Part shown: one piece after another, positions 8,501 through 10,880 of the stretch | Numbering within the stretch: position 1 is the stretch's first letter | Layout: each line of letters starts with the position of its first letter | UHGV virus genome: UHGV-1585826 | Strand: one strand, 5' to 3' | Origin: a virus | DNA: 11,552 nucleotides | The notes under the pieces: model-generated | Database searches by the model: none | What the model saw: the letters and a program-made list of their open reading frames with translations, nothing else | What the model was told of the DNA's origin: nothing | Position numbers and translations under genes: made by a program

Positions 8501-10880
8501 AGCGGCGGAAATCATGCAGCGTGTGCGTAACAGCGGCAAACAGGCACAGTATGACCGTCTGGCAGGGATTATTGACGATATGCTGGCCCGTCGCCGTGAG
8601 ATTATCCGTGAGGCAGGACTGGAAGAGAGCGGCGTGGTGGATGCCTGGCAGAAAGCCTACCGTTACTACGTCCCCCTGAAAGGGCAGGATGTTGACGGTG
8701 TGGTGTCACAGCCACGTACAGGCAAGGGATTCACCATCGGCGGGCGTGAAAGTAAGCAGGCCATGGGGCGTGCATCCCGCGCACAGTCTCCTTCCACTCA
8801 GGCGATACAGGATTTGAGTGAATCGCTGATCCGCAATCGCAAAAATGAAGTGGGTAACGCCTTCCTGAAACTGGTACAGGATAATCCCGACAAGGATTAC
8901 TGGCAGGTATTCACTGATGACAGACCGGATACAATGCGTGTGATTGCAGAGCGCAAGGACCAGGAAACTGGTGAAACCATTCGCGAAGTTGTCGAGCGCC
9001 CTGTGCCGATGGCAATGATGGCGGATCGCTACTTCACCACCAAAAAGGACGGCAAAACTTACTACATTAAACTTCATGATCCGCGCCTGATGCGTGCGAT
9101 GAAGAACATGGGGCCGGAAACCAGTAACGCCGTAATCCGTACGCTGGGGAAAGTTAACCGCTTCCTGGCAACGGTGAACACGTCGTATAACCCGGAATTT
9201 CTGGTCAGTAACTTCATCCGTGACGTGCAGACTGCGGTGATGAACCTGAAGGCTGAGCAGGGAAGAAGCGACGGCAAACTGAAAGGGCTGGATAACTTAT
9301 CCGCGCTGGCTGTGGTGAAAGACAGCCGTTCCGCCATGTCAGCCGTATACGCAAGTCTGCGGGGTAAAACCCTCACGGGCAAAGGCGCACAGTGGCAGAA
9401 AGTGTGGAAAGAGTTTGTTGAGGACGGAGGTAAAACCGGCTGGTTTAACATGGGTGACCTTGAAGGCCAGCAGAAGGAAATGGATCGCCTTGTGTCGCTG
9501 GCGAAGGGCGGATGGAAAGGCCAGAGTATCGGTGCATGGCATTCGTTCCTGAACCTGGTCGAGGATGCCAACGGCGCGGTTGAAAACGCTCTGCGTCTTT
9601 CTGCCTATAAACACGCCCGTGATGCCGGTTTGTCACGCCAGCAGGCGGCATCTCTTGCCAAAAACATGACGGTGAACTTTAACCGTCGTGGTGAGCAGGG
9701 AGCGCTGATGAACTCGCTGTATATGTTTGCCAACGCCAGCATTCAGGGGACCGCAAACCTGGTGAGAACGCTCGGACATCTTAATGGCGACGGGCCGTTA
9801 CTGGAGCGCCTTCGCTGGAAGAATCTCAATGTACCGCAGAAAATCGCGCTTGCAGCTGTGGGAGCGGGTTATCTGCTTGGCTCGCTTAACCGCAGTGTGG
9901 CGGGTGAGGATGATGACGGGGTTAACTGGTACGACAAGGTGCCGTATCATGTGAAAGAGCGTAACCTCGTCATTATGAAATCGATGTTCGGGGGCAGGGC
10001 CGGAGAGTACTGGAGTATTCCTCTGCCTTACGGGTACAACGTTTTCTTCCTGCTCGGGCATACCTCTGAAGGTGTGGCTGCTGGTGACCTGACGGCGTCC
10101 CGTGCTGCCGGTAATGTTGTCGGTGGTATCCTGGGGGCATTCAGCCCGATTGGCAGTGAGACGTCGGAAACGCTGTCCGGGGCATTGCTGAAAAATGCAG
10201 CACCGACAATTCTGCGTCCGTTTGCGAATCTTGCCATGAACGAAAACTTCATGGGGGCGCAGATTTACCAGGAGAACATGCCGTTTGGTACACCAAAACC
10301 TGACAGCCAGCTGGGAAGACGTTCAACGCCAGAAGCGTACAAGGCGTTTGCATTCTGGCTGAATGCGTTCTCAGGTGGCAGCCAGTATCGTCCCGGCGCG
10401 GTGGATATCACACCGGAATCGCTGAAATTCTGGATTGACTATATCTCCGGAGGGACAGGGCGCTTCATTTCCAAAACCACGGATGCGGCGGTGAAATCGC
10501 TGAATGGTATTGATATACCGGAACAGCAGGTGCCCTTCCTGGGGAAAATTTCGGGTGAGGTGATGCCGTATGCAGACCAGCAGAAGATGTACGACCGGAT
10601 GACAGAGGTTGCGCAGTATCACGCAGAGCTGAAGAGTCTGACCGGTGCAGAAAGAACGGCGTTCATTGACGAGAACAACGGAAAATTGTTGATGAACGGG
10701 CTTATGCAGGATACCCGGAAGAGACTGAAGGATTTGCGCAAACAGCGCGATGCCATTTATGCCGACAGTTCTCTCAGTCTGGCGCAGCAGGCGGCGATGG
10801 TGAAATCGGTAGAGCGGGATATGAAGGTTGCCGTGGATCGGTTTAACCGCGAGTACAACAAAAAAGTGGGAGTGGATTAA
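2529..10880 (+). CDS. Giant 2,783-aa multidomain protein; candidate virion-packaged/injected polyvalent or ejection-type protein with zincin-like HExxH motifs
   Basis: Uninterrupted 8,352-nt ORF from ATG 2529 (GGAG at 2520-2523, 5-nt spacer) to TAA 10878-10880, on the same strand as portal and scaffold. An ORF of this length cannot arise by chance. Composition is mosaic: N-terminal region with a Gly/Ala-rich hydrophobic segment, a long acidic P/E/Q-rich linker, a central region with two HExxH motifs, and a C-terminal region with Gly-rich hydrophobic segments. I cannot assign a family with confidence; the functional call is inference from architecture and genomic context. Confidence 0.95.
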   Translation: MAYSDEQRPEAQFGNQSRNSLNIQQPGETDSYDVFFSDPNRWKDNSTSFSLGDVLPTMGKGVAQSVRGTGEMARGLGDAMIQSPVKTGARILNEFSRMGLPGVATVQDIFVGGSKGADEVIDTLPDGKNAVTDTVGKGLKVTGKAVSGGAKASDEWLTGKMSPGAQRALNTPMTEGYDDSAVWVAKGVNLIGALVPDMVAGGVTKKLGDVTLRKVLTAGLEKKYIAAGMQPERATALAAEAVDKKMPDFFQAGLITHSTVSAQGRSAMAAADAVLNADYSELAKSPKFQQTFLSIDADPQHAQLTDRQKMDLAKERVADEVRAQLATDPELLAVNAMAAKLGDAQLLNLAMRGTAKTVKSGIVRNATEQGTINAAQGGYSRYQENTALRETAGMDVSPWEGVADATIEGAALGAAMGAPFGAAAGYRGKRQAADEAAMREAESVPQDESAPQPEPVDPVAQHRESMQGMNREQLLEQYADADMAHEGDTSAVHRREAASQLLNELDEQAKRQAVMDELKAKPRPELLEEYRKLSQKEGRTDTEEQQLQAIRDVLRPQREARPEAQPQPENADDGDGSIYPTVRFRDPDEVRIEINESGASRPAERIEKVRPDNRYFTDEKSALGSDVFRNASATGLKPSVVKKGENQYAVEMDNPAFSEDVATETINTLADGERITDADPMEQPAFMRDPRFRGFTGDDTEVQARLARGNAPTAEELVRSQMAEGDAGPTAQELTERPRLPAPGDIHPGQGYPLPGEVARTPDENQAGRGGRFTTTGEVKGQSFQKGREQAPENAAGRQGEILEGETVRRGLPSPDEQNATAPVREGLPAPESQRGVDMPQPESLPRMVRDSLPELAQQAEARRQTGDNRQTITDVPDTEVPVPVDKPSTHQQVRGAKIEDFGEEIKGAAKHRYAQLAEAMGKTLEDGEYATQPLSKLFPKPDYARLEKEGVDSDTLAMMALYRSEIPTRTSRNMQKWISIVKSGREATAGMLEGKIPAAKLADMMDSKPGLRSMSDTWKLLRTLSALQIDKASGYRVRSGVYSFVGGKRYDPPQMMYSLRDSKGRDLFFSESRDELLKKAKAYFDEQGSRERETPATSADDRITFDVYRHKASGDIFIGYGKNRQKLKGGFESARDAHDYVRTHRDELVNQVKALREVSREEQRNATNRDRTGPERRKGDVSPEQFSDAFGFRGVQFGNYVESPRRQADLNRAYDSLHDLADVLNVPTKALSLNGRLGLAFGARGKGKAAAHYEPGEVAINLTKGNGPGALAHEWFHSLDNYFGRYDVSTDGKITSGGDYMTEAQRAGRVFKDGRYVDAEYPVRQEVYDAFKGVMKAINSSDMLRRSERLDGVRSKPYWSTDVEMAARAFERYVQDKARMAGVENDYLVNIRKADDHGQLDTYAYPTNAELDGGIREAFDHLFRTLKTRETDKGVEFYSRKGVTRTPEGNLISDVNRSAEAKGSPVPQVEAVARGVISGIKDSDLKVRVVKSQKEAEALAGESFDGYGKVHAFYRPDKREIVLVADNIPDGRTVREKLRHEIIHHAMEHVVTPAEYQTIIKTVLKTRDSDNATIREVWRKVDASYGKESPEVQAGEFLAHMAEKQPIKFVAAWERVVALVKGVLRRTGLLKPTELNDIRLVRETIRTLGQRVREGYTPREDGADASSQYSRSGKPDPFKVPEGEGERYRDDLARMMKSLRSTDLTVNIGRTPPVLRHLGAPDLPLVISRDTVRKATNGVKHVVPMDVIERLPELMHDPDAIYRSATERNAVVMLLDAVDKNGDPVVSAVHMKAVRSRLEINKVASVYGTENGKKLKSMEMTGLTLYRREKLSRDNLLHRGLQLPKGEHSYRGSVDKILYPEDIRKGPYYSRTSSLTPEETIASRFVRQMQDKFQVLKAVQENIRKTGGKIDDSNIAYMAEELFHGKAENDLNVMKERYVQPLAKLLADYKIAQADLDEYLYARHAPERNAHIAKINPKMPDGGSGMTNAEAAEIMQRVRNSGKQAQYDRLAGIIDDMLARRREIIREAGLEESGVVDAWQKAYRYYVPLKGQDVDGVVSQPRTGKGFTIGGRESKQAMGRASRAQSPSTQAIQDLSESLIRNRKNEVGNAFLKLVQDNPDKDYWQVFTDDRPDTMRVIAERKDQETGETIREVVERPVPMAMMADRYFTTKKDGKTYYIKLHDPRLMRAMKNMGPETSNAVIRTLGKVNRFLATVNTSYNPEFLVSNFIRDVQTAVMNLKAEQGRSDGKLKGLDNLSALAVVKDSRSAMSAVYASLRGKTLTGKGAQWQKVWKEFVEDGGKTGWFNMGDLEGQQKEMDRLVSLAKGGWKGQSIGAWHSFLNLVEDANGAVENALRLSAYKHARDAGLSRQQAASLAKNMTVNFNRRGEQGALMNSLYMFANASIQGTANLVRTLGHLNGDGPLLERLRWKNLNVPQKIALAAVGAGYLLGSLNRSVAGEDDDGVNWYDKVPYHVKERNLVIMKSMFGGRAGEYWSIPLPYGYNVFFLLGHTSEGVAAGDLTASRAAGNVVGGILGAFSPIGSETSETLSGALLKNAAPTILRPFANLAMNENFMGAQIYQENMPFGTPKPDSQLGRRSTPEAYKAFAFWLNAFSGGSQYRPGAVDITPESLKFWIDYISGGTGRFISKTTDAAVKSLNGIDIPEQQVPFLGKISGEVMPYADQQKMYDRMTEVAQYHAELKSLTGAERTAFIDENNGKLLMNGLMQDTRKRLKDLRKQRDAIYADSSLSLAQQAAMVKSVERDMKVAVDRFNREYNKKVGVD
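3747..3806 (+). other. Gly/Ala-rich hydrophobic segment in giant protein (residues 407-426, IEGAALGAAMGAPFGAAAGY); candidate membrane-interacting helix
   Basis: Twenty consecutive small or hydrophobic residues with a GxxxG-like spacing, in an otherwise charged region; read directly from the translation. Confidence 0.4.
3816..5200 (+). other. Extended acidic Pro/Glu/Gln/Arg-rich low-complexity linker in giant protein (approx. residues 430-890)
   Basis: The translation has very few hydrophobic residues and contains degenerate short repeats such as RGLPSPDEQ / EGLPAPESQ / PQPESLP and PEAQPQPE. Boundaries are approximate. Confidence 0.5.
6348..6362 (+). other. HExxH motif 1 (HEWFH, residues 1274-1278) in a Gly-rich conserved-looking context; candidate zincin-like metallopeptidase active site
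   Basis: Codons CAC GAA TGG TTC CAT are in frame. Surrounding sequence: GFRGVQFGNYV...GARGKGKAAAHYEPGEVAINLTKGNGPGALAHEWFHSLDNYFG. Confidence 0.4.
7149..7178 (+). other. HExxH motif 2 (HEIIHHAMEH, residues 1541-1550) with extra downstream His; candidate second zincin-like site
   Basis: Codons CAC GAG ATT ATT CAC CAT GCA ATG GAG CAT are in frame. Upstream context: GYGKVHAFYRPDKREIVLVADNIPDGRTVREKLR. HExxH followed by further His residues is typical of several metallopeptidase clans. Confidence 0.4.
9843..10160 (+). other. C-terminal Gly-rich hydrophobic segments of giant protein (residues ~2439-2453 and ~2494-2544); candidate membrane-insertion region
   Basis: IALAAVGAGYLLGSL and YWSIPLPYGYNVFFLLGHTSEGVAAGDLTASRAAGNVVGGILGAFSPIG read from the translation. 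Confidence 0.35.

Follow-up and report, generated by a model that had tools for sequence, protein, structure and literature searches.

We examined a hydrophobic region in a giant phage protein encoded by the UHGV virus genome UHGV-1585826, a stretch of DNA of 11,552 nucleotides that is referred to here as the window. A first-pass annotation, made from the letters alone, had singled out window positions 9843-10160 as a C-terminal cluster of Gly-rich hydrophobic segments and as a candidate membrane-interacting region of a protein that would act during genome delivery. In-frame translation places these positions at aa 2439-2544 of a 2783-aa open reading frame (ORF) at 2529..10880 on the plus strand (aa numbers below refer to residues of this ORF, and window numbers to the whole 11,552-nt stretch), and the peptides named in the annotation match the translation in this frame exactly. 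The two segments belong to the C-terminal LPD38 module of the protein. We narrowly favor the reading that the region forms the buried structural core and the signature acidic loop of this module, which we infer to be a shared unit for virion incorporation and exit. The features on which the analysis rests are as follows:

2529..10880, plus strand: giant ORF of 2783 aa, a phage polyvalent virion protein (ORF list, Pfam, phrog_616, and DNA identity)
8826..10877, plus strand: C-terminal LPD38 module containing the segments, ~680 aa, aa 2100-2783 (profile, stand-alone genes, and AlphaFold2)
9831..9902, plus strand: predicted helix with segment 1, aa 2435-2458 (DSSP helix 336-359 of the model)
9903..9920, plus strand: GEDDDG acidic motif directly after this helix, aa 2459-2464 (conservation)
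9924..10541, plus strand: Pfam LPD38 match, aa 2466-2671 (PF18857)
10020..10040, plus strand: PLPYGYN motif between the segments, aa 2498-2504 (N2504 invariant; P, P, and G at least 90%)
10038..10154, plus strand: segment 2, predicted amphipathic helices aa 2504-2517 and 2523-2537 followed by FSPIG, aa 2538-2542 (DSSP helices 405-418 and 424-438)

Segment 1, IALAAVGAGYLLGSL, occupies aa 2439-2453 (window 9843-9887), and segment 2, FFLLGHTSEGVAAGDLTASRAAGNVVGGILGAFSPIG, occupies aa 2506-2542, starting with FFLLGH and ending with AFSPIG. The segments had been described as parted by a short acidic GEDDDG stretch alone, but the actual gap is 52 residues long (NRSVAGEDDDGVNWYDKVPYHVKERNLVIMKSMFGGRAGEYWSIPLPYGYNV), 13 of them charged, with a mean Kyte-Doolittle (KD) hydropathy of -0.63. 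It holds both GEDDDG and PLPYGYN, and the AlphaFold2 model has strands there. Gly is modestly enriched in the segment region, with 17/106 residues compared with 8.5% protein-wide (binomial p=0.008, uncorrected). The first-pass annotation thus read the residues correctly but gave a wrong description of what is part of a known domain.

Pfam profiles identified LPD5 (aa 1047-1190), LPD1 (aa 1351-1430), and MuF_C (aa 1740-1829; PBECR) in the giant ORF, together with LPD38, which matched over profile positions 2-189 of 189 with E=3e-46 and 158.3 bits, compared with a curated gathering threshold of 27 bits. The ORF is covered end to end by phrog_616, a family with no function assigned. The chain thus combines several unrelated domains (LPD5, LPD1, MuF_C, and LPD38) and is encoded among the virion genes of a portal/terminase phage, with a P22-like portal fragment upstream, as described for phage-type polyvalent proteins (Iyer et al. 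2017). Window positions 2342-11552 are 100% DNA-identical to a prophage of E. coli O104:H4, in which the gene carries the RefSeq name 'LPD38 domain-containing protein'. The DNA is ~95% identical to 933W L0134 and VT2-Sakai H0150, and the protein shares 90% identity with phi24B vb_24B_48 (2807 aa). In Shiga toxin (Stx) phages, the giant gene sits at the end of the late region. Judged by sequence, the ORF encodes the giant polyvalent virion protein of short-tailed Stx phages, with Sp5 ORF80 (ECs1242), 933W L0134, and phi24B vb_24B_48 as its orthologues; the UHGV-1585826 copy differs from these in adjoining another upstream region, the window being mosaic at ~2342-2351.

Sp5 ORF80 is essential, its deletion leaving no plaques and no lysogenisation; the mutant packaged DNA and its heads looked normal, while tail-fibre antibody binding was not detected (PMC5155283). 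In phi24B, a 2026 preprint reported gp47, a protein of 2811 aa with LPD5, LPD1, LPD38, and MuF-C, to be abundant in virions by detection and invisible in the cryo-electron microscopy map, and its authors proposed an ejection protein. Because size and domain content agree, gp47 is probably vb_24B_48. Among other LPD38-bearing proteins, JC1 gp69 is virion-associated and that of phage PTXU04 is critical for infection. Our literature searches found no tested function of LPD38.

Two HExxH motifs of the giant protein lie outside all Pfam matches, HEWFH at aa 1274-1278 (window 6348-6362) and HEIIH at aa 1541-1545 (window 7149-7163). Iyer et al. (2017) describe zincin-like peptidase domains in polyvalent proteins, which these motifs may represent, and class MuF-C as a PBECR RNase, whereas the phi24B preprint instead labels MuF-C a metallopeptidase. 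A long Pro/Glu/Gln/Ala-rich stretch at aa about 430-900 (window 3800-5200), between the N-terminal region and LPD5, has no domain match, coincides with the maximum of the window in GC content (~0.57), and is probably a disordered linker.

To define the unit to which the segments belong, we searched for homologues with aa 2250-2783 and found 95, of which 53 were aligned with aa 2100-2783 to give a 54-sequence alignment. The resulting profile matched 22,284 cluster representatives (clustering at 50% identity) at E<=0.001, of which 8,273 remained at E<=1e-30. Among the 150 matches listed, 140 were new sequences, and in 134 of these the ~620-position match finished no more than 10 residues from the C-terminus; the shortest had 586 aa and the longest 5181 aa, and the median length of the N-terminal extension was ~2000 aa. 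Across these sequences the module is almost always C-terminal. Stand-alone module proteins of 586-924 aa also occur. In a Halomonas prophage, the module is a 686-aa gene of its own that matches phrog_616 positions 2105-2788, and the gene before it encodes 571 aa that match phrog_616 positions 1886-2052. Because of the C-terminal placement and the separate Halomonas gene, we regard aa 2100-2783 as a gene-sized unit. In this prophage, of Halomonas elongata (CP142770.1, 4081-12061), the giant protein is split into separate genes at the end of the structural cluster, in the order 378-aa phrog_601-like, 450 aa, 351 aa, 571 aa, and 686-aa LPD38, and these split genes provide natural domain boundaries. 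The protein is a direct member of PF18857 (Iyer, Burroughs, Anand, de Souza & Aravind 2017), with segment 2, PLPYGYN, and FSPxG inside the Pfam model, and its phage-only distribution and C-terminal position fit the original description. It differs in that the conserved unit is ~3.5x longer than the 189-position model, and segment 1 and the GEDDDG motif fall just upstream of the Pfam boundary.

In this sequence alone, the hydrophobicity of the cluster is no more than chance (shuffle P=0.25-0.83). Among 2000 shuffles of the 2783-aa protein, a 15-mer with KD >= 1.85 was present in 57%, a 19-mer matching the most hydrophobic one of the protein was reached in 83%, and a 15-residue run without polar residues or proline (DEKRNQHP) occurred in 25%. 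These frequencies speak for a chance hydrophobic patch of no significance, but the same patch recurs throughout the family. In a set of 158 non-redundant homologues, with identity down to about 25-30% and a module alignment of 627 columns, no other run of apolar columns in the module is as long as that of segment 1 (12 columns; the runner-up has 7), segments 1 and 2 are the first and second windows in family-profile hydropathy, and the flanking motifs are near-invariant. Because it is conserved in this way, we counted the hydrophobic feature as real and consider the chance reading refuted, with a negligible probability left to it. The hydrophobic cluster of the first-pass annotation accordingly stands as a property conserved across 158 homologues, and not as one exceeding chance in the single sequence from which it was read.

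Conservation extends to the length and the residue-size pattern of segment 1. Almost no polar residue appears at its first 12 positions in the 54 homologues. In the larger set of 158, to which the following counts refer, the apolar run is 15 residues long in 86 homologues and longer than 16 in one only, and it is framed by Q2437 (122/158), K2438 (127/158), N2454 (134/158), and R2455 (144/158). Residue size is kept position by position, with small residues at 2442 in 91%, at 2447 in 90%, and at 2458 in 100% of sequences, mostly Phe/Tyr at 2448 and mostly Leu at 2450; Asp occurs at 2451, inside the segment, in 23/158. Segment 1 combines a low hydrophobic moment (Eisenberg; 0.12) with a high mean hydrophobicity (0.70). 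Segment 2 shows a different pattern in the 54 homologues, with recurring polar positions at 2511-12, 2514-15, 2518-22, 2525, and 2529 and a family mean KD over 19 residues (KD19) of 0.92; the FSPxG that ends it is near-invariant (F2538 in 49/54; P2540 invariant).

GEDDDG is not a linker, no motif nearby being better conserved. Asp is present at 2461 in 155/158 and at 2463 in 153/158 homologues, with D or E at 2462 in 153/158; in the 54-sequence alignment, the Asp residues correspond to D362 and D364, which are among the nearly invariant columns. The loop is the likeliest candidate for a functional site in this neighborhood. Other polar columns of the module (E, R, K, Q, and several N) are also nearly invariant. 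Such a cluster of polar residues, D2461 and D2463 included, would suit a catalytic or metal-binding effector directed at a host substrate (envelope or nucleic acid), with the E-D-D-D loop and conserved Asn, Lys, and Arg as ligands of a divalent cation and the helices as a scaffold. Enzymes are found among the other domains of polyvalent proteins, and we nevertheless judge an effector role of the module improbable.

AlphaFold2 modeling of aa 2100-2783 with the 54 sequences yielded a mostly helical model with a mean predicted local distance difference test score (pLDDT) of 83.9 and a predicted template modeling score (pTM) of 0.71. The segment 1 helix is among its best-predicted parts, with 10-residue blocks at pLDDT 92-95 in the full-module model, and this holds even in a 281-aa construct, aa 2420-2700 (pLDDT 89.2, pTM 0.72; segment 1 helix 92-96). 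Because the 281-aa construct agrees, the segment 1 helix is predicted to be integral to the compact LPD38 core and not to depend on the 320 residues with which the module begins. In the models, both segments are confident helices inside a compact domain. As the protein is stored in a capsid, where there is no membrane, a helix of apolar residues only would have to be covered by protein. Mean-field direct coupling analysis for helix contacts (158 sequences; effective number, Meff, 129) was dominated by N-terminal gap artefacts, and the best helix coupling ranked 1638th. A Foldseek search of the model against the PDB gave no match at E<=0.001, and a PDB sequence-profile search reached a best E of only 0.035; the module is without a solved structural relative. 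A structure search of predicted viral structures (BFVD) returned 61 matches at E<=0.001 over ~700 columns, and the named ones among the 50 matches listed were mostly large polyvalent or LPD38 proteins, with a query TM-score of up to 0.80.

The segments thus probably lie in the hydrophobic core of a compact globular domain (pTM 0.71-0.72; helix pLDDT 92-96), the placement that the first-pass annotation had itself named as speaking against membrane contact. This is not decisive, as the precedent of T7 gp16 illustrates. The putative transmembrane (TM) regions of T7 gp16 are described as having a globular fold until ejection and as refolding later (PMC8954989), and because of this, burial of the helix in the packaged protein is compatible with later insertion.

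A classical TM helix is expected to have ~19 apolar residues with KD19 >= 1.6 (a rule of thumb) or a translocon-scale sum below 0. Segment 1 has a KD19 of 1.22, and the maximum of the protein, near its N-terminus, is 1.38; both are below 1.6. On the Hessa translocon scale, taken as a 19-residue sum that ignores position in the helix, segment 1 sums to +6.2 kcal/mol, and the sum is above 0 in 158/158 homologues, while KD19 exceeds 1.6 in 27/158 only. By KD19, by the positive Hessa-scale sum, and by a modal apolar run of 15, segment 1 does not look like a classical TM helix. Control proteins gave the following values:

True TM controls (P22 SieA, GtrA, and holin): KD19 maximum 1.9-2.6, longest apolar run 14-19, Hessa-scale sum -1.3 to +1.7
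T7 gp14, T7 gp16, and P22 gp7: KD19 maximum 1.31-1.44, longest apolar run 17-20, Hessa-scale sum +2.8 to +6.1
Soluble P22 coat, portal, and tailspike: KD19 maximum 1.13-1.33, longest apolar run 9-12, Hessa-scale sum +6.7 to +9.8
Giant ORF protein: KD19 1.22-1.38, longest apolar run 15, Hessa-scale sum +6.2

Hydropathy does not decide the matter, because the ejection proteins score as weakly as the giant protein and the soluble controls overlap with both. The comparison with ejection proteins that the first-pass annotation had suggested does not set the giant protein apart from T7 gp14/gp16 and P22 gp7, nor clearly from soluble P22 proteins. KD, the Hessa-scale sum, and the Eisenberg moment were dropped as discriminators for this reason.

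The main rival reading, a refined form of the idea in the first-pass annotation, is a latent membrane anchor. The helix would be buried in the packaged protein, would be exposed by unfolding and tail passage, and would then insert in the inner membrane, probably as an oligomer, where it would anchor a trans-envelope conduit or contribute to it; such a role has been proposed for T7 gp16 and P22 gp7. In most homologues, no window of the module is more hydrophobic than segment 1, and in 27/158 its KD19 exceeds 1.6, but the Hessa-scale sum is positive in every homologue and the soluble P22 coat protein equals its KD19. A small-xxx-small pattern at 2442/2446 and 2447/2451, the basic flanks K2438 and R2455, and aromatics nearby are in keeping with an anchor; Asp2451 within the segment in 23/158 homologues is not, and each chain has just one apolar helix, which is too few to line a DNA channel. 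The Gly/Ala-rich segments of T7 gp14/gp16 and P22 gp7 are just as weak (KD19 1.31-1.44), the behavior of T7 gp16 before ejection lends the idea a precedent, and the phi24B authors propose the giant virion protein as an ejection protein. Podovirus ejection proteins (T7 gp14/gp15/gp16, P22 gp7/gp20/gp16, and N4 gp51/gp52) are, as the giant protein, capsid-internal and proposed to leave with the DNA; they differ in their organization as three separate proteins, compared with one giant multidomain chain, and the comparators have apolar runs of 17-20 residues, compared with the 15 at which segment 1 is held. None of the Pfam, PHROG, PDB profile, and structure searches linked the giant protein to a known ejection protein by sequence or by fold. 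On balance, we consider a latent anchor rather unlikely.

A buried hairpin of the kind seen in colicin, Bcl-2, or the diphtheria toxin T-domain was rejected because only one apolar helix is present. Hydropathy, amphipathicity, AlphaFold2, and homologue tests gave no positive evidence for membrane interaction of aa 2439-2544. The wider virion-ejection frame of the first-pass annotation is still reasonable, the phi24B homologue being probably gp47, which is virion-borne and a proposed ejection protein. In the N-terminal region, two Gly/Ala-rich hydrophobic stretches, AVWVAKGVNLIGALVPDMVAGGV at aa 181-203 (window 3069-3137) and IEGAALGAAMGAPFGAAAGY at aa 407-426 (window 3747-3806), have KD19 values of up to 1.38, under the TM threshold.

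A further reading, which we regard as unlikely, takes the LPD38 module itself as the envelope-crossing device of giant-polyvalent-protein phages. The glycine-zipper-like helix would oligomerise in the inner membrane, with the EDDDG loop at the membrane/periplasm interface. Were this true, EDDDG may bind divalent cations or lipid head groups, and the module would anchor a conduit for DNA and the N-terminal effector domains, in place of a trio of T7- or P22-like proteins.

The reading to which we give a slight preference is that of a structural core within a packaging unit. Segment 1 would be a fixed-length, all-apolar helix packed against other helices in a soluble, capsid-packaged protein and would run directly into the near-invariant acidic loop GEDDDG, and segment 2 would consist of two amphipathic helices with the FSPxG turn closing them off, so that the hydrophobic segments would hold the fold together and not span a membrane. 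The module would serve as a common 'chassis' of phage-type polyvalent proteins, which would place the protein at or near the portal during assembly and let it exit via the tail along with the DNA, with the variable N-terminal domains (LPD5, LPD1, the two HExxH motifs, and MuF-C/PBECR) as cargo. Several points weigh against it. The burial of segment 1 is deduced from pLDDT and pTM values and from the absent polar face, and the packaging-and-exit role solely from the location of the module and its phyletic distribution; other parts of the protein could just as well account for the Sp5 phenotype; and the Gly/Ala-rich apolar helix of segment 1 looks like those in T7 gp14/gp16 and P22 gp7, for which membrane insertion has been reported or predicted.

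The giant 'DarB-like antirestriction' proteins Bcep22 gp75 and JC1 gp69 share the C-terminal LPD38 module and are virion-associated. A family of this kind, phrog_10089, matches aa 2344-2671 of the UHGV-1585826 protein, and in JC1 gp69 LPD38 lies at 4195-4401 of 4515 aa. The cargo differs, comprising methyltransferase, helicase, and lytic transglycosylase in these proteins, compared with LPD5, LPD1, and MuF-C in UHGV-1585826.

Upstream of the giant gene, window positions 21-1187 on the plus strand match the C-terminal portion of P22-like portal proteins (PF16510, 274-594 of 594 profile positions), and the gene appears to extend past the left window edge. It is followed by a 371-aa ORF at 1345..2460, whose aa 1-335 match phrog_479 and whose aa 314-371 match phrog_601, so that it looks like a fusion; being acidic and of low hydropathy, it also looks like a scaffolding protein from its position and composition. 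The window is mosaic, with a junction at ~2342-2351 inside the 3' end of this ORF. For bases 1-2351, prophage DNA with 100% identity is present in E. coli FORC_069, NCCP15648, and others, whereas bases 2342-11552 have theirs in the O104:H4 Stx2 prophage, and the two parts were joined in no complete genome of the collection compared. The window could come from a prophage altered by deletion or recombination, or from an assembly join.

Within the giant gene, the opposite strand holds several ORFs of 80-200 aa, which are probably not genes; comparable antisense ORFs, vb_24B_50c to 52c, are entered as hypothetical proteins in the GenBank record of phi24B. The minus-strand ORF 9798..10061 (87 aa) was set aside as a by-product of the long plus-strand gene, which carries all the homology found, no dedicated minus-strand search having been made.

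Because the protein and its LPD38 domain are already known and annotated, this analysis adds no new entity. What is gained is the delineation of a ~680-aa, almost always C-terminal unit with more than 22,000 cluster representatives and without a solved structural relative, whose most distinctive local features are the fixed-length apolar helix and the near-invariant EDDDG loop into which it feeds. The orthologue is essential in medically important, short-tailed Stx phages, and the helix and the acidic loop are therefore natural first targets for mutagenesis.

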